Virus record (IMG/VR): IMGVR_UViG_2711768070_000005
Coordinates: 1 to 4,177 of that record
From: a virus
Taxonomy: Duplodnaviria; Heunggongvirae; Uroviricota; Caudoviricetes
Length of the DNA: 4,177 bases
Direction: 5' to 3' (one strand)
Shown piece by piece: positions 1-4,094 of this stretch (position 1 is the stretch's first letter; the number at the start of each line of letters is the position of its first letter). Made by a program: the position numbers and the translations under genes. The notes beneath the pieces were generated by a model. That model saw only the letters and a list, made by a program, of their open reading frames with translations, did not search any database and was not told the origin of the DNA.

Positions 1-1
1 T

Positions 2-37
2 CTGGAGCTTATCAGTAAACAGAGAGGTTCGAAGTGA
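2..37 (+). CDS. 3' end of an upstream phage gene (partial, runs off the 5' edge)
   Basis: Frame 2 is open from the window edge to TGA at 35-37. This stop overlaps the GTG start of the next gene as GTGA (34-37), a typical coupled junction. Frame 1 also ends at TAA 16-18, so the frame assignment is uncertain. Confidence 0.25.
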   Translation: MELISKQRGSK

Positions 38-591
38 GCGAAATTAATTATCAGGCACTGCGTGAAAAGGCAGAAAAAGCAACTAAAGGGAGCTACATCG
101 TAGGGCATACATCTGTTAATCGGCATGGCAATTTAACAGGAGTTTTTGTTTGTCAAAAATGGAAAGAAGAACCCGGTGGTGTGATTGCGGAATGTCATGT
201 TAACTGCCTGGTTGAAACAGATGTTCAGGCTTATGCAAACGCTGAATTTATTGCTGCTTTTAATCCAAATGTTGCGCTGGCACTGCTGGATGAACAGGAA
301 AGGAACCAGCAATACATCAAACGCCGCGACCAGGAGAACGAGGATATTGCGCTAACGGTAGGGAAGCTGCGTGTTGAGCTTGAAGCAGAAAAACAGCGGG
401 CAAAAGTTCTATTTATGGAAAATGCTCGGCTTAAGTCAGGCATAGCCGGTCTGATACACCTCGGTATTCGATATGCAGATGTTGAGGTCATGAAAATTGC
501 TGGAGATGCCCAGCTTTCTACTCCATGCACTGACAGCATCATAAACAGCATTGCAGCAGGCATTTTCACCAAAGAGGGGGCAGCACGATGA
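34..591 (+). CDS. Ead/Ea22-like phage early protein (185 aa)
   Basis: GTG start at 34 preceded by AGAGAGG (21-27) at 6-nt spacing. The N-terminal region (QALREKAEKATKG...NAEFIAAFNPNVALALLDEQE) matches my recollection of the Ead/Ea22-like family, followed by a charged coiled-coil-like segment. Family assignment is from memory, not a search. Confidence 0.65.
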   Translation: MSEINYQALREKAEKATKGSYIVGHTSVNRHGNLTGVFVCQKWKEEPGGVIAECHVNCLVETDVQAYANAEFIAAFNPNVALALLDEQERNQQYIKRRDQENEDIALTVGKLRVELEAEKQRAKVLFMENARLKSGIAGLIHLGIRYADVEVMKIAGDAQLSTPCTDSIINSIAAGIFTKEGAAR

Positions 592-731
592 GAACACTAG
601 AGGTTCGCGCTGAAGACGTAATCCCTGGTGATGTGCTCATAACATCTAAAGGTCAACAATGTGCGGTTAAATCTTTTTGGATGGAAAATGACAAAGTGAC
701 TTCAGTTCGGTACGGATGGTTCCGAAACTGA
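588..731 (+). CDS. Small hypothetical phage protein (47 aa), translationally coupled
   Basis: ATG at 588 overlaps the upstream stop as ATGA (588-591). A strong SD, GAGGGGG (574-580), lies 7 nt upstream. Open to TGA at 729-731; translation MRTLEVRAEDVIPGDVLITSKGQQCAVKSFWMENDKVTSVRYGWFRN. Absent from the ORF track because it is short. Confidence 0.5.
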   Translation: MRTLEVRAEDVIPGDVLITSKGQQCAVKSFWMENDKVTSVRYGWFRN

Positions 732-773
732 TTATGACTATGACGAATTGCTTGTTATTGAGAGAGCTGCCTA

Positions 774-1196
774 ATGACCACCTTTACCAAAGAACAGTTA
801 ATCTCCCATGCACGCGAAAGCGTTAGTTATCTGGAAAACTTGAAAGGACGTGTTAGCAAAGAAGGTGCGGACTGCAAAGTTGTTATTGAGATGGTTGCAC
901 GAGATCTAAAACTGGCACGAATTGCACTGGCCTCGCTGGAAGCAAAACCAATAGGTGCATTCCACATTGCAGAACAGCAAGTTGACGGCACAAGTGACTA
1001 CATCAAGGATGGGGAATGGCCTATTGATAATGGAATTATTGAGGTCTACGCCGCTCCCCCCGTTCCAGTAGTACCGGAAGAAAAACCAATGCCTAATCCT
1101 CTTAGCATGTACGCGGTTGATGCTGTTGCCGCTATTGCAGAGGTGAGAGGCTGGAACGCCTGCCGCGCTGCAATGCTTCAGAGAAAAGGAGAGTGA
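774..1196 (+). CDS. Hypothetical phage protein (140 aa)
   Basis: ATG at 774 with GAGAGAG (760-766) 7 nt upstream. The stop TGA (1194-1196) sits 1 nt before the next ATG. No family recognised. Confidence 0.65.
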   Translation: MTTFTKEQLISHARESVSYLENLKGRVSKEGADCKVVIEMVARDLKLARIALASLEAKPIGAFHIAEQQVDGTSDYIKDGEWPIDNGIIEVYAAPPVPVVPEEKPMPNPLSMYAVDAVAAIAEVRGWNACRAAMLQRKGE

Positions 1197-1197
1197 T

Positions 1198-1704
1198 ATG
1201 ACCACTATAACCGATAAGAAACAGTATCCAGGCGAGCAATATCTTAATGAGCTGATCACCAACATAGAGTTTGCGGCAAGGGCACCAGTTGAAGTCGTGA
1301 GAGCGATGGCAGCAGAGCTACAGAAGCGGCGCGAAGCTGATAGTGCAGAACCTGTAAGCCAAACTTACAAGTTAACTTTTGAGCAATGGCTGGAACAGCA
1401 GCACGGCAAAATTGATGTTGATTGCGGCTGTGTGAGCACTGAAACGCTTCTGCACTGGATGCGTGTGGCGTATGAGGCTGGCAACTCTCCGGTAATTCCG
1501 GATGGTTGGATAAACTGTAGTGAGCGAATGCCGGATACAAAAACAGCCGTTCTTGTTGCCGTGGAGTTTGGCAGGAAAGGTGACTGGCGAATGAAATGGG
1601 CGACTTACATCCCGGGGCATCCTGACGCTAATGATGGGTGGATAATTCCTGGTGCGTCGTGGAAACCGTCACACTGGATGCCGCTACCAGAGCCTCCACT
1701 TTGA
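1198..1704 (+). CDS. DUF551-domain phage protein (168 aa) with an N-terminal extension
   Basis: ATG at 1198 with AGGAG (1187-1191) 6 nt upstream. The C-terminal ~65 aa (GWINCSERMPD...VLVAVEFG...GWIIPGASW..SHWMPLPEPPL) fits the DUF551 signature as I recall it (W-I-x-x-x-E-R-L/M-P ... HWMPLPEPP). Confidence 0.75.
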   Translation: MTTITDKKQYPGEQYLNELITNIEFAARAPVEVVRAMAAELQKRREADSAEPVSQTYKLTFEQWLEQQHGKIDVDCGCVSTETLLHWMRVAYEAGNSPVIPDGWINCSERMPDTKTAVLVAVEFGRKGDWRMKWATYIPGHPDANDGWIIPGASWKPSHWMPLPEPPL

Positions 1705-1800
1705 AAGCGAAGCTTATACATATCTTTTACATCAGCAATCTATTGTTAATCTCCAATCAATGTTACGTTGTCATCTCACTCATGCTTTGGAGGTAGTGAT

Positions 1801-1980
1801 ATGTCTTGTCCAAAATGCGGTTCTGGAAATATTGCAAAAGAAAAAACAATGCGTGGATGGTCTGATGATTATGTGTGCTGCGATTGCGGATACAACGACT
1901 CTAAAGACGCATTTGGAGAGCGTGGTAAAAACGATTTTGTCAAAATTAATAAAGAACGCGAAGGCAACGAAAAAAGCTAA
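1801..1980 (+). CDS. Small zinc-ribbon protein (59 aa; CPKC...17 aa...CCDC)
   Basis: ATG at 1801 with a consensus SD, GGAGG (1789-1793), 7 nt upstream. Two Cys pairs (CxxC ... CxxC) form a zinc-ribbon pattern. The ORF track starts this frame at TTG 1768, but the ATG with SD is the more likely start. The overlapping 115-aa ORF (1652-1999) in another frame is judged spurious. Confidence 0.55.
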   Translation: MSCPKCGSGNIAKEKTMRGWSDDYVCCDCGYNDSKDAFGERGKNDFVKINKEREGNEKS

Positions 1981-2043
1981 TTTATTTATTCATATATGAA
2001 AACAATGTAACCAATATTCGAATTGAAGAACTGAAAGAACACC

Positions 2044-2066
2044 AAGCCGCCTGATGGCGGTTTTTT
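2044..2066 (+). terminator. Rho-independent terminator of the upstream early operon
   Basis: GC stem CCGCC (2047-2051), loop TGAT, GGCGG (2056-2060), immediately followed by TTTTTT (2061-2066). It lies 64 nt after the zinc-ribbon stop. Confidence 0.65.
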
Positions 2067-2076
2067 CTTGCCTGAT

Positions 2077-2092
2077 TTGCAGGTTCGATTCC
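2077..2092 (+). other. Orphan tRNA-Arg (argW) T-arm fragment, 16/16 nt; not a functional tRNA
   Basis: TTGCAGGTTCGATTCC is identical to the variable-loop end, T-stem and T-loop of argW as I recall it (...AATTGCAGGTTCGATTCCTGCAGGGGACACCA). The downstream sequence (CTATTCGG) cannot pair with GCAGG, and there is no acceptor stem, so it is a fragment. Confidence 0.55.
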
Positions 2093-2111
2093 CTATTCGG
2101 AGATAGCACTC

Positions 2112-2312
2112 ATGCAACACGAACTACAACCTGATTCACTGGTTGATTTGAAATTCATCATGGCCGATACTGGCTTTGGTAAAACCTTCATCTACGACCG
2201 GATTAAGTCCGGCGACCTGCCAAAAGCCAAAGTTATCCACGGTCGAGCAAGATGGTTATATCGTGACCATTGTGAATTCAAAAATAAGCTCTTAAGCCGC
2301 GCCAATGGGTAA
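2112..2312 (+). CDS. torI: Prophage excisionase / recombination directionality factor, Xis-type winged helix (66 aa)
   Basis: ATG at 2112 with GGAGA (2099-2103) 8 nt upstream. The translation MQHELQPDSLVDLKFIMADTGFGKTFIYDRIKSGDLPKAKVIHGRARWLYRDHCEFKNKLLSRANG matches my memory of E. coli TorI (66 aa, KplE1 RDF). Its position as the last gene before the att core fits an RDF. Confidence 0.8.
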   Translation: MQHELQPDSLVDLKFIMADTGFGKTFIYDRIKSGDLPKAKVIHGRARWLYRDHCEFKNKLLSRANG

Positions 2313-2328
2313 AATAGCGGGTAAAATA
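2307..2328 (+). promoter_or_regulatory. Tandem direct repeat GGGTAAAATA-gc-GGGTAAAATA; candidate integrase arm-type or RDF binding sites in the attR arm
   Basis: Two exact 10-bp copies (2307-2316 and 2319-2328) with 12-bp periodicity. They overlap the torI stop codon and lie 58 bp from the att core. The function is inferred only from position. Confidence 0.35.
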
Positions 2329-2385
2329 TTTCTCACACCTAAAAAACACCATTCCAATCAATCCCCTGCTGCCTCAAGTAGATGT

Positions 2386-2401
2386 CTGCAGGGGACACCA
2401 T
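2386..2401 (+). other. attR core: duplicated 3' end of tRNA-Arg argW (CTGCAGGGGACACCAT); prophage/chromosome junction
   Basis: Exact match to the last 15 nt of argW (CTGCAGGGGACACCA) plus T, the 16-bp core I recall for KplE1 attL/attR. Sequence to the left does not match argW, so identity ends at the core boundary. Confidence 0.7.
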
Positions 2402-2519
2402 TTATCCTTCCAACGAAATCTACCTTCCCCGCGTAAAAGTTGGGTTTGGCAGCACACTTGCCCTAAATCTACTCATTTTCCCTGCAACAGGTTGAAATCT
2501 CAGCACTGTGCGGCGATGA

Positions 2520-2835: not shown

Positions 2836-4083
2836 CTATATTGCAGAAGGTACAGGCGTTTCCATCACCATTTGCTCACGTTTTTTACTCAGGAAGAAAA
2901 TGCCAAATAACAACATCAGGCAGACAATACCCGAAATTACGAAGAAAACCGTCTGGTAACCTGCATGGTCAAAAAGTATTCCAGTCGGCGTTGAAAGCAA
3001 CACAATCCCCAACGAACTGGCAATTTGAAAACCAATCAGAAAGATCGTCGACGACAGGCGTTTATCAAAGTTTGCCACGCTGTATTTGAAGACGGAAATG
3101 ACACACAGTGGAACCTCAATGGCATGTAACAGCTTCACTAATGAAATAATCCAGGGATTAACGAACAGTGCGCAGGAAAGAATACGCAACGCCATAATCA
3201 CAACACCGATAAGTAATGCATTTTTTGGCCCTACCCGATTAACAAAGAAAGGAATAATGGCCATGCACAGCGCTTCGAGTACAACCTGGAATGAGTTGAG
3301 ATAACCATACAGGCGCGTTCCTACATCGTGTGATTCGAATAAACCTGCATAAAAAACAGGAAAGAGCTGTTGATCAAAAATGTTATAGAAAGACCACGTC
3401 CCCACAATAAATATGACGAAAATCCAGAAGTTTCGATCCTTGAAAACTGCAATAAAATCCTCTTTTTTTACCCCTCCCGCATCTGCCGCTACGCACTGCT
3501 GATCCTGATATTTAAAACGCATGTTGATCATCATAAATACAACGCCAAATAGCGAAACCAACCAGAAGTTGATATGGGGACTGATACTGAAAAATATGCC
3601 AGCAAAGAACGCGCCAATCGCATAGCCAAAAGATCCCCAGGCGCGCGCTGTTCCATATTCGAAATGAAAATTTCGTGCCATTTTTTCGGTGAAGCTATCA
3701 AGCAGACCGCAGCCCGCCAGATACCCCAAGCCAAAAAAGAGCGCCCCCAAAATTAGACCTACAGAAAAATTGCTTTGCAGTAACGGTTCATAAACGTAAA
3801 TCATAAACGGTCCGGTCAAGACCAGGATGAAACTCATACACCAGATAAGCGGTTTCTTCAGACCGAGTTTATCCTGGACGATGCCGTAGACCATCATAAA
3901 TAGAATGCTGGTAAACTGGTTGACCGAATAAAGTGTACCTAATTCCGTCCCAGTCAACCCTAGATGTCCTTTCAGCCAAATAGCGTATAACGACCACCAC
4001 AGCGACCAGGAAATAAAAAAGAGAAATGAGTAACTGGATGCAAAACGATAGTACACATTTCTGAATGGTATATTCAGTGCCAT
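2836..4083 (-). CDS. cscB: Sucrose:H+ symporter, LacY/oligosaccharide-H+ symporter family MFS permease (415 aa)
   Basis: Long minus-strand ORF ending in TAG (complement of 2836-2838). The translation MALNIPFRNVYYRFASSYSFLFFISWSLWW... matches my memory of E. coli CscB and shows LacY-family features. The ORF track start (TTG, 4101) adds 6 residues; the ATG at 4083 giving MALNIPF is the likely real start. Confidence 0.85.
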   Translation of the reverse strand: MALNIPFRNVYYRFASSYSFLFFISWSLWWSLYAIWLKGHLGLTGTELGTLYSVNQFTSILFMMVYGIVQDKLGLKKPLIWCMSFILVLTGPFMIYVYEPLLQSNFSVGLILGALFFGLGYLAGCGLLDSFTEKMARNFHFEYGTARAWGSFGYAIGAFFAGIFFSISPHINFWLVSLFGVVFMMINMRFKYQDQQCVAADAGGVKKEDFIAVFKDRNFWIFVIFIVGTWSFYNIFDQQLFPVFYAGLFESHDVGTRLYGYLNSFQVVLEALCMAIIPFFVNRVGPKNALLIGVVIMALRILSCALFVNPWIISLVKLLHAIEVPLCVISVFKYSVANFDKRLSSTIFLIGFQIASSLGIVLLSTPTGILFDHAGYQTVFFVISGIVCLMLLFGIFFLSKKREQMVMETPVPSAI

Positions 4084-4094
4084 AATTACCGTAA

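Follow-up and report, generated by a model that had tools for sequence, protein, structure and literature searches.

What is the string of small genes that lies directly upstream of torI in this viral DNA, and does it form an autonomous operon of undescribed functions, as a sequence-only reading of the region had proposed? The window analyzed here is the whole 4,177-nucleotide stretch, and the question concerns positions 34-2066. In a mosaic lambdoid prophage inserted at argW, this segment very probably makes up the promoter-distal end of the early-left (pL) operon, a region that is called the 'exo-xis region' in lambda terms and whose members are 'ea' genes in P22 and HK620 terms. We are similarly confident in an explanation of the locus as a whole in which pL-distal ea genes are followed by an orf55-derived terminator that edges the torI module. 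The accessory stretch is thus real but of an ordinary and known kind, consisting of the terminal, highly variable early genes of a lambda/P22-type prophage (Table 1).

Table 1. Coordinates of features in the window.
Feature	Coordinates	Strand	Basis or remarks
orf73-type DksA/TraR C4 zinc-finger gene, 3' end	1..37	+	Stop TGA 35-37; frame reads ...LISKQRGSK, then stop
Ead/Ea22-like protein, 185 aa	34..591	+	GTG start, SD AGAGAGG at 21-27; PF13935, phrog_368
Conserved 61-aa gene (phrog_15283), +1-nt frameshift at 702-704	588..774	+	Alignment with intact relatives
140-aa protein, DUF551-less form of the 'MTTxTKE...ARIALASLEA...GWNACRAAMLQ' (EaA/YfdT-like) family	774..1196	+	Sequence comparison
DUF551 protein, 168 aa	1198..1704	+	N-terminal helical module, AEPVSQTYKL linker, variable middle, DUF551 domain aa 103-167
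eag (P22 eaG / HK620 hkaD), 59-aa four-cysteine zinc ribbon	1801..1980	+	Own SD GGAGG at 1789-1793; phrog_2945
lambda orf55-type gene remnant, last 15 codons	2007..2054	+	Translation (VTNIRIEELKEHQAA, then stop); stop codon within terminator loop
Intrinsic terminator, 8-bp stem, 4-nt loop, T-run	2044..2066	+	48 nt upstream of torI ATG
torI upstream control region	2068..2092	+	TTGC-N5-TTGC box 2068-2080, then 16-nt argW T-arm copy 2077-2092
torI, recombination directionality factor	2112..2312	+	Outside accessory string, guarded by the terminator; 100% identical to E. coli TorI loci; relatives annotate torI
attR core	2386..2400	+	Last 15 nt of tRNA-Arg argW, exact match to positions 61-75; prophage/host boundary

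The genomic context is provided by contig L034, which is 99.9% identical to window 1-1765 and extends upstream through cIII, Gam, a RecT-family Bet, a YqaJ-type Exo, DUF1317, DUF1382, a 93-aa ORF and a DksA/TraR zinc finger. The members that can be named there are cIII, gam, bet, exo, orf61, orf63 and orf73, with matches to PF07026, PF07131 and PF01258, and the 93-aa ORF, which has no Pfam match, occupies the orf60a slot. The window genes therefore have the position that defines an exo-xis region, between recombination genes (exo/bet/gam or erf/abc) and an excisionase gene on the same strand, and they continue its cassette of orf61 (DUF1317), orf63 (DUF1382), the orf60a slot, orf73 (DksA/TraR) and, in the window itself, ea22 (PF13935). 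[quoted passage not shown] The annotated HK620 genes hkaG(Ea22)-hkaF-hkaE(DUF551)-hkaD(Eag)-hkaC(TorI) lie downstream of pL, nutL, an N-like antiterminator and terminators tL1-tL3. Since pL, nutL and N are located outside both the window and L034, it is by analogy alone that we infer transcription of the window genes from pL with N-type antitermination.

The stop/start junctions are as the sequence-only reading described them: GTG 34 overlaps the TGA 35-37 of the upstream ORF, ORFs 34-591 and 588-731 are joined at ATGA 588-591, and ORFs 774-1196 and 1198-1704 at TGAtATG 1194-1200. The truncated upstream ORF is a full 73-aa orf73-type gene in L034 (PF01258, 37.8 bits), and relatives annotate it as TraR/DksA. 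There is no coupled junction at 732-773, a 42-nt gap that is untranslated in the window because the 61-aa gene is frameshifted, and 96 nt (1705-1800) lie between the DUF551 gene and eag. Overlaps of 4 nt and gaps of 1-2 nt also occur in HK620 hkaI-hkaE, and such close packing is usual for a pL early-left operon. Translation is probably coupled through the overlapping stop and start codons. The claim of a single polycistronic accessory operon thus stands insofar as the genes are co-oriented, tightly packed and very likely co-transcribed, but not insofar as the operon was taken to be self-contained, for the genes form the last part of the pL exo-xis region (PMC10834534), and the string continues upstream in L034.

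A self-contained string would fit an autonomous 'moron'-type cassette, close to the sequence-only view, with its own promoter and terminator, expressed in the lysogen and conferring stress tolerance or phage defense on the host. We regard this as very improbable. A terminator does close the gene string, eag comes with an SD of its own after a 96-nt gap, and a K-12 yfdS deletion is reported to be sensitive to H2O2 (cited in PMC4776307). However, the terminator belongs to the orf55 remnant instead, the first gene overlaps the orf73-type stop, and the string is unbroken up to exo/bet/gam. Positions 1-34, where a promoter of its own would sit, fall inside an upstream gene, and a consensus sigma-70-like scan of the whole window found none near 1-34 and only two promoter-like sites overall versus 7.1 expected by chance, although such a scan can miss weak promoters and the gap before eag could hide one. 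RNA structure in the 1700-1810 gap is at the level of chance (z = 0.0), Rfam models gave no matches anywhere in the window at E values up to 1, and tRNA scans of the window and of 18 related loci found none. PADLOC defense models also had no matches for four of the proteins, and for Eag there was only zinc-ribbon noise (E at least 0.018).

The position is indeed a variable accessory hotspot: among 22 torI loci taken from other representative genomes, 18 lack homologues of the window genes within 4 kb upstream, and coverage of window 1-2400 stays below 80% in every complete E. coli genome. The genes are real, with Pfam and PHROG matches and thousands of homologues. Their products are not undescribed: each falls into a family that has a name and is annotated widely (Ead/Ea22, DUF551, Eag and several PHROGs). 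Searches of Pfam, PHROGs, PADLOC and PDB sequences, two AlphaFold models and one fold search assigned no function; the PDB sequence search with four products gave only zinc-ribbon noise, for Eag, and an NCBIfam search gave no useful match.

The first gene encodes an Ead/Ea22 protein, matching PF13935 at 120.8 bits (cut-off 27) over aa 2-151, with the N-terminal segment and long coiled coil of the family. It is 48% identical to HK620 HkaG over aa 1-139. The gene is a mosaic with a breakpoint near 376; the encoded N-terminus and coiled coil are similar to those of other Ea22 proteins, and the C-terminal domain derives from a phage-plasmid block. Values of dN/dS are unreliable for the mosaic genes (Ead and DUF551), as global alignments mix non-homologous modules. 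Tetramer formation and pro-lysogenic activity are described for the lambda and P27 Ea22 proteins only (PMC10834534), from which the window protein differs in its C-terminal domain.

The '47-aa gene' of the sequence-only reading (ORF 588-731) derives from a conserved 61-aa gene by a +1-nt frameshift. Three relatives have ACTCT-GTTCGG where the window has ACTTCAGTTCGG (702-704), and intact 186-nt versions are present in L005 and L006. The phrog_15283 profile is 61 positions long, and the window fragment matches only aa 1-38. The intact gene ends in TAATG, such that the ancestral stop TAA 772-774 overlaps the ATG at 774. An identical frameshift allele is found in L034 and L035, and there is none in 5426 complete E. 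coli genomes. Of the three products said to lack an assignable function, none has gained one, but the 47-aa 'product' is simply a fragment of the 61-aa gene.

This broken gene might suggest that the string is largely decaying cargo, made up of fragments left behind in a recombination hotspot and having at most a minor function today, and the orf55 remnant, DUF551 pseudogene fragments at the equivalent place in UTME-12, frameshift variants across the Eag family and the dispensability of the exo-xis region in lambda (PMC10834534) point the same way. Four genes nonetheless retain intact frames and conserved overlaps, there are thousands of conserved homologues, the dN/dS of 0.11-0.15 for the 140-aa gene indicates purifying selection, and measurable phenotypes are associated with the exo-xis region in lambda and Stx phages (PMC10834534). 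We think it very unlikely that decay accounts for the string, and favor the pL-distal explanation.

The 140-aa protein and its DUF551-containing neighbor are built alike. The 140-aa protein shares 93-97% identity with the first 140 residues of DUF551 proteins of 205-234 aa, and likewise with stand-alone 140-aa proteins, and its N-terminus matches K-12 YfdT (E = 5e-4). The DUF551 domain of the 168-aa protein (PF04448, 72 bits, cut-off 22) keeps the WIxCSERMP and HWMPLPEPP motifs, and in the alignment modules are swapped around invariant W-I-x-C-S-x-R-M-P and W...P..P positions, with recombination breakpoints coinciding with the linker motifs of the family. From these comparisons, the 140-aa protein and the N-terminal part of the DUF551 protein are members of one shuffled modular family, with YfdT and YfdS as K-12 counterparts, and the 'unexplained ~100-aa N-terminal extension' of the DUF551 protein is one of its standard modules. 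Direct homology between the neighboring 140-aa and 168-aa proteins was considered and rejected, as BLASTP similarity is not significant; what they have in common is architecture and linker motifs rather than a domain. The structure prediction that had been suggested as a route to function led to two poor AF2 models, of the 140-aa protein (mean pLDDT 65.9, only a helical hairpin at 6-56 and a helix at 114-139, with the conserved core block 60-95 unmodeled) and of the DUF551 protein (mean pLDDT 59.9), the latter with no Foldseek match in the PDB at E ≤ 0.001.

YfdS carries DUF551, and replication initiation is inhibited by multicopy yfdQ and yfdR plus yfdS or yfdT (PMC4776307). YfdS and the window DUF551 protein have no significant pairwise similarity, so that transfer of the yfdS phenotype relies on the Pfam domain they have in common. 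DUF551 is also reported fused to a MazZ-type dATP/dGTP pyrophosphohydrolase (PMC10834534), and we found such annotations as well.

Eag is 95% identical to HkaD, and relatives annotate it as 'Eag protein'; the family is narrow (35 clusters), and its C-terminal tail differs between members through frameshifts. One phage record labels an Eag homologue 'Lar-like'. Eag and 10 of 14 family members have weak matches to PF14354 (Lar), with a best E of 6e-5, and these raise the prospect that the string is an anti-restriction or anti-defense set, in which Eag would provide Lar-type restriction alleviation, the shuffled DUF551 proteins would evolve fast and inhibit host immunity, and early pL expression would protect incoming DNA. 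That label, the early and extremely mosaic nature of the genes, their location adjoining anti-RecBCD genes in relatives and the MazZ fusion noted above are all consistent with it. The Lar scores, however, are below the curated cut-offs (PF14354, 23.0 versus 28.6 bits; TIGR03655, 14.5 versus 39.6 bits), generic zinc-ribbon families such as HVO_2753 score equally well on Eag, the tail frameshifts argue for weak constraint, and no experiment or structure links DUF551 to defense. Eag may be described as Lar-like at the sub-threshold level only, and we consider the anti-defense explanation unlikely, if somewhat less so than the autonomous or decaying alternatives.

The gene string ends at an intrinsic terminator, as the sequence-only reading had it. 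The hairpin AAGCCGCC-TGAT-GGCGGTTT, with five G-C pairs in its stem and followed by a TTTTTT run, has an MFE of -14.6 kcal/mol (z = -3.1, with none of 200 shuffles as stable) and is probably functional. It is identical or near-identical in HK620, 611R6 and E1V33, and hairpins with unrelated stems occupy the equivalent position in L012, L013, L015, L016 and L030. In Escherichia, Citrobacter, L013 and L030, the torI ATG is preceded at 48-49 nt by stems of at least four unrelated sequences, and the distance shifts in L012 and L016 only through indels; conservation is judged here by position and unrelated stems rather than by a formal covariation statistic, as loop lengths differ. The hairpin is not universal, being absent in K-12 KplE1 and in more distant torI loci. 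The same terminator precedes a lambda-type xis in an O157 prophage, and full 55-aa orf55-type genes are present in L036, L010 and lambda (J02459, 29121-29285). On these sequence grounds, the terminator is inherited from an orf55-type gene and is not part of the accessory cassette.

The torI upstream region contains the argW T-arm copy, identical to argW positions 46-61 at 16 of 16 nucleotides, within which GGTTCGATT is invariant across 12 loci and between genera. Published TorI sites have GTTCG as their core (PMC2951348), and the HK620 annotation places a cII site and a 'phage integration' promoter in this region. A T-arm hairpin in the RNA of the torI leader was rejected, as its stem is not kept in Escherichia or Citrobacter. 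The attR core downstream matches the HK620 attP core, and homology to HK620 stops at 2406.

That the transcript 'does not read into torI' is too strong a statement, because the same operon in HK620 contains pL, nutL, an N-like antiterminator and several tL terminators. Since HK620-type phages carry N and nutL, read-through into torI would be the expected route of its expression after induction. Expression of torI alone is thought to decide excision. The terminator would thus form the left edge of the torI module, in a lysogen stopping stray, non-antiterminated transcription short of torI, and N-modified pL transcripts would pass it on induction. The placement of a terminator directly before the excision-factor gene appears from the comparative evidence to be a conserved design, and fits the published view of KplE1-type excision as determined by TorI expression only.

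A bolder proposal is that the shuffled proteins (the 140-aa and 168-aa proteins, YfdT and YfdS), with their MTTxTKE helical hairpin, ARIALASLEA/AEPVSQTYKL linkers and optional DUF551 head, are polymorphic early phage adaptors binding a host replication or immunity factor, for which the yfdQRST data hint at DnaA-dependent initiation as a candidate, with the invariant block 58-96 as the binding motif; and that the terminator and GGTTCGATT TorI-type box form a two-key gate on excision, combining antitermination with autoregulation by the RDF. We regard this combination as a long shot.

Under the preferred pL-distal explanation, the window genes would have no promoter of their own and would be transcribed after induction or infection from pL, several kb upstream. 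They would supply small non-essential proteins: an Ea22-type coiled coil, two members of a shuffled modular family with and without the DUF551 head, and the Eag zinc ribbon, with the 61-aa gene broken. By analogy with the exo-xis genes of lambda and Stx phages and with K-12 yfdQRST, these products would most likely modulate the choice between lysis and lysogeny along with the replication or stress physiology of the host, and roles in virion building or phage replication seem unlikely. As a discovery the region amounts to little, being a standard, well-populated example of 'viral dark matter'; its families have names and are under study (the exo-xis and yfdQRST literature). The analysis has nevertheless yielded a pseudogene call that annotators would miss, and a clear view of how recombination at short linker motifs reassembles DUF551/EaA-type genes, with P22-like prophages and ~110-kb phage-plasmids among the exchange partners.

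Comparison with known systems places the locus among several relatives. The exo-xis region of lambda and Stx phages (orf61-orf63-orf60a-orf73-ea22-...-xis, driven from pL) is alike in its position between recombination genes and excisionase, in the conserved upstream cassette (seen in L034), in the slot for an Ea22-family protein, which is pro-lysogenic in lambda (PMC10834534), and in having variable genes after ea22; lambda also has the orf55 terminator and TTGC box before the RDF gene. It differs in having ea8.5 and a full orf55 where the window has the 61-aa pseudogene, two EaA/DUF551-family genes and eag, and in using Xis rather than the AlpA-type TorI; int is not downstream in the window because attP separates torI and int. 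The HK620 hkaG-hkaF-hkaE-hkaD-hkaC and P22 'ea' genes (ead, eaA and eag) have the same gene order and spacing. HK620 is 98.3% identical to window 1479-2406 (the DUF551 domain, Eag, terminator, torI and attP arm), and HkaG and HkaE are homologues of the window Ea22 and DUF551 proteins, the latter at 52% identity. The window differs from HK620 in having an unrelated 61-aa gene in the hkaF slot, the additional 140-aa gene, and a segment at 376-1358 (from the Ea22 C-terminal domain to the DUF551 N-terminus) derived from a block otherwise found on ~110-kb phage-plasmids.

K-12 KplE1/CPS-53 (yfdQ-yfdR-yfdS-yfdT-ypdJ-torI) uses the same argW site, and its torI module is identical from the T-run on; the N-terminal module of the 140-aa protein has a homologue there in YfdT. 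KplE1 lacks the hairpin, Ea22 and Eag, whereas the window lacks yfdQ and yfdR. Finally, Lar of the Rac prophage (PF14354/TIGR03655) is, like Eag, a four-cysteine zinc ribbon of small size whose gene comes late in an early-left operon, and the two have weak HMM similarity, but Eag falls short of the curated cut-offs of both Lar profiles and belongs to a narrow family.

The gene string at 34-2066 had been proposed, in a sequence-only reading, to form a self-contained accessory operon, and the tight junctions on which this rested (GTGA at 34-37, ATGA at 588-591, and TGAtATG at 1194-1200) are all confirmed by ORF listing and direct reading; Rfam and tRNA scans of the window gave no match. The wider context, however, argues against a separate operon. 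IMG/VR contig L034 shares 99.9% identity with window 1-1765, and upstream it encodes a DksA/TraR zinc finger (lambda orf73 type), a 93-aa ORF, DUF1382 (orf63), DUF1317 (orf61), Exo, Bet, Gam, and cIII, so that by gene content this string together with the window's genes is the lambdoid exo-xis region. That region is pL-driven, among the earliest transcribed, and dispensable, and is variable beyond the orf61-orf63-orf60a-orf73-ea22 cassette (PMC10834534). In HK620 the genes hkaG (Ea22-like), hkaF, hkaE (DUF551), hkaD (Eag), and hkaC (TorI) follow the same order with equally tight spacing, downstream of an annotated pL, nutL, N-like antiterminator, and terminators tL1-tL3. The L034 context and the HK620 order and spacing thus indicate that the window carries the distal part of an early-left operon. 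A promoter scan agrees with this: against an expectation of 7.1 promoter-like sites, the whole window has two, neither of them where the gene string begins.

Coordinates of features and mosaic segments in the window
Feature	Position	Strand	Basis or context
Upstream gene 3' end (stop TGA)	35-37	+	ORF listing and direct reading
Ead/Ea22-like ORF, 185 aa, GTG start	34-591	+	ORF listing and direct reading
47-aa ORF	588-731	+	ORF listing and direct reading
140-aa ORF	774-1196	+	ORF listing and direct reading
168-aa DUF551 ORF	1198-1704	+	ORF listing and direct reading
eag, 59-aa ORF	1801-1980	+	ORF listing and direct reading
Hairpin and T-run	2044-2066	+	3' of eag
torI	2112-2312	+	3' of hairpin
IntS arm-type repeats	2306-2328		3' of torI
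attR core (15-nt 3' end of tRNA-Arg argW)	2386-2400		3' of torI
LacY-family sucrose permease gene (PF01306, 637 bits)	2836-4089	-	Abuts attR
Mosaic segment resembling other Ea22 genes	42-393		BLAST
Mosaic segment, 96% identity to phage-plasmid pOkiPb01698_2	376-1358		BLAST
Mosaic segment, 98.3% identity to HK620	1479-2406		BLAST

The 47-aa ORF is a frameshifted copy of a 61-aa gene and not a product in its own right. The 61-position profile PHROG 15283 matches only its residues 1-38, and an intact 186-nt counterpart is present in three ~110-kb phage-plasmids, with an ATGA overlap at its start (as in the window) and its end in a TAATG on the ATG of the next gene. Alignment of these genes places one extra base at 702-704 (window ACTTCAGTTCGG, phage-plasmids ACTCT-GTTCGG), and deleting one base restores a 61-aa protein ending at TAA 772-774. 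Because the frameshifted allele recurs in L034 and in metagenome contig L035 it is real and not a single read error; a search of 5426 complete E. coli genomes did not find it.

The 140-aa and 168-aa proteins have 4158 and more than 6800 relatives respectively, and the N-terminal extension of the DUF551 protein, previously considered unexplained, finds its explanation in the modular build of this family. Closest to the 140-aa protein are, on the one hand, stand-alone proteins of 122-150 aa ending in AAMLQGKGE and, on the other, proteins of 205-234 aa that continue past the shared 140 residues into a DUF551 domain. Alignment shows that DUF551 proteins are built from exchangeable blocks. The N-terminus is helical (MTT(I/F)T) and the linkers read ARIALASLEA / AEPVSQTYKL; the middle blocks are optional and include the VYAAPPVPVVPEEKPMPNP...GWNACRAAML block that the 140-aa protein also has; and in the head the positions WIxCSxRMP ... 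W..P..P do not vary. Purifying selection acts on the 140-aa gene (dN/dS 0.11-0.15), and K-12 YfdT is homologous to the N-terminus of its product (E = 5e-4); K-12 YfdS carries DUF551 (PMC4776307). The family's most conserved block, KPIGAFHIAEQQVDGTSDYIKDGEWPIDNGIIEVYAAPP (aa 58-96, window 947-1061), is nearly invariant in 30 sequences. AlphaFold2 models the 140-aa protein as a helical hairpin and a C-terminal helix with the conserved block 60-95 at pLDDT <40, and this block may fold only upon partner binding or in an oligomer.

Attempts to assign functions gave little. Pfam matched only Ead_Ea22 and DUF551 among the products, all PHROG matches are of 'unknown function', and searches of the products against NCBIfam, PADLOC, and PDB sequences returned nothing. 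The AlphaFold2 model of the DUF551 protein is poor (pLDDT 59.9; DUF551 part 65-83, with three strands modelled), and Foldseek found nothing for it in the PDB. Such experimental hints as there are come from published work: lambda and Stx-phage Ea22 favour lysogeny (PMC10834534), and multicopy yfdQ, yfdR, and yfdS or yfdT inhibit DnaA-dependent initiation (PMC4776307). The Eag family is narrow, with 35 clusters including P22 Eag, and its C-terminal tails differ by frameshifts (noted in P0256, P0259, P0263, P0270, P0273, and P0274); constraint seems confined to the N-terminal CPKCG…CCDCG zinc ribbon. In P22 Eag and several E. coli variants the tail is in the other frame (KTSLSELIRNAKATKK), which is open in the window within ORF 1652-1999, and some variants extend into the orf55 remnant (VTNIRIEELKEHQAA). 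The similarity of Eag to Lar lies under both curated cut-offs, with generic zinc-ribbon models scoring equally.

The terminator fold (-14.6 kcal/mol) has z = -3.1 against dinucleotide shuffles, with none of 200 shuffles as stable. Window 2007-2054 encodes VTNIRIEELKEHQAA followed by a stop codon, the C-terminus of a 55-aa protein whose full gene lies upstream of torI in Escherichia sp. E1V33, and directly upstream of xis in an O157 lambda-type prophage (L036) and lambda (J02459, 29121-29285). As this stop codon falls inside the terminator loop, the terminator derives from a gene of orf55 type, the body of which the window lacks. HK620, 611R6, and E1V33 share the window's hairpin, and unrelated stems occupy the position in Enterobacter and Dryocola (GACCTCGC/GCGGGGTT), Citrobacter (ACCCGGC/GTCGGGT), L013 (AGCCGC/GCGGCT), and L030 (GCCCGGC/GCCGGGT). 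Each is followed by a T-run and ends 48-49 nt before the torI ATG, a distance changed only by a 10-nt insertion (L012) or a deletion (L016); E. coli UTME-12 has a CCGCA-TCAA-TGCGG hairpin at the same place before the torI control region. Such a hairpin is absent from K-12 KplE1 and from torI homologues of at most 82% identity. There is thus good comparative evidence for a functional terminator, which plausibly would keep stray transcription out of torI, since RDF expression alone is believed to govern excision in the KplE1-type family. The proposed insulation of torI would be conditional, with read-through expected on induction because phages of this type carry N/nutL and other terminators inside the same operon.

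Between terminator and torI, TTGCAGGTTCGATTCC (2077-2092; 20-35 nt before the torI ATG) matches argW 46-61 (T-arm) at 16/16 positions, and the attR core, 294 nt beyond it, is the adjoining argW 61-75, so that torI lies between two halves of a 30-nt copy of the argW 3' end. Upstream of torI homologues, 12 loci (Escherichia, Enterobacter, Citrobacter, Serratia, Pantoea, and Edwardsiella) all keep the core GGTTCGATT unchanged, with diverging flanks. This core contains GTTCG, the core of published TorI sites in attL (CAGTTCGC, TGGTTCGC, and others; PMC2951348), and is thereby a candidate operator through which TorI may regulate its own gene, in the region called 'non-characterized PtorI'. As for RNA structure, a T-arm hairpin in the torI leader was rejected, its stem not being maintained in Escherichia or Citrobacter. 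A second TorI-site-like octamer, TAGTTCGT (2117-2124, minus strand), matches attL site I3 (CAGTTCGT) at 7/8 positions; it is inverted within torI codons 3-5, its GTTCG 37 nt downstream of that in the upstream box, and its conservation is uninformative because it lies in coding sequence. Directly after the terminator T-run is TTGCCTGATTTGC (2068-2080; TTGC-N5-TTGC), a box annotated in HK620 as the cII site of a 'phage integration' promoter. At the homologous place just before xis, L036 has TTGCGTGTAATTGC (TTGC-N6-TTGC), which we take to be lambda's pI cII site, and homology between TorI-type and lambda-type modules ends inside the TTGC box.

BLAST against reference loci shows a mosaic with breakpoints at the linkers named above. 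Each segment has a counterpart of 89-98% identity in annotated phage or prophage DNA, and the exact mosaic is absent from the complete-genome set. The 984-nt block at 376-1358 runs from the C-terminal domain of Ea22 through the 61-aa and 140-aa genes into the N-terminus of the DUF551 protein. It shares 96% identity with E. coli plasmids of ~110 kb, presumably SSU5-like phage-plasmids (pOkiPb01698_2, pMRY16-002_2; phages PhiR41_1, Cyrano, and CMS-2020a). These elements hold a whole array of Ead/Ea22, ClpX-zinc-finger, and DUF551 genes, so that modules of the ea type pass between phage-plasmids and P22-like prophages in the chromosome. The suspected accessory hotspot is evident from gene content, as 18 of 22 other torI loci share none of the window's genes in the 4 kb upstream. 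UTME-12 (L003) has DUF551 pseudogene fragments and an extra 114-aa hypothetical gene (4914-5258) between eag and torI, making this gap itself an insertion point.

Two MAG contigs, L013 (JAEWEJ010000341.1, 'Actinomycetes') and L030 (JBKEAL010000209.1, 'Parachlamydiaceae'), carry torI modules of enterobacterial type, in which TorI is 85-92% identical and the terminator, box, and argW-type core are all present; mis-binning or contamination is the probable cause. In ON470589.1 ('Escherichia phage vB_EcoP-611R6'), sucrose permease, fructokinase, and sucrose-6-phosphate hydrolase genes lie beyond attR, so this record is a prophage region with chromosomal flank and not a packaged genome.

The window's architecture matches the described exo-xis/ea region, and the variability upstream of torI is itself known of that region. 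The order of torI, arm-type repeats, attR core, and host permease shows that the window covers the right end of an argW-integrated prophage. The permease is an oligosaccharide permease, annotated in relatives as the csc-locus sucrose transporter. The recombination module is of the KplE1/HK620/Sf6 type, in which the RDF gene and int flank attP and are therefore found at opposite ends of the prophage (PMC2951348, PMC3509656, PMC8787464). Whereas the K-12 prophage adjoins dsdC, that of the window lies in a variable argW-csc/dsd island.
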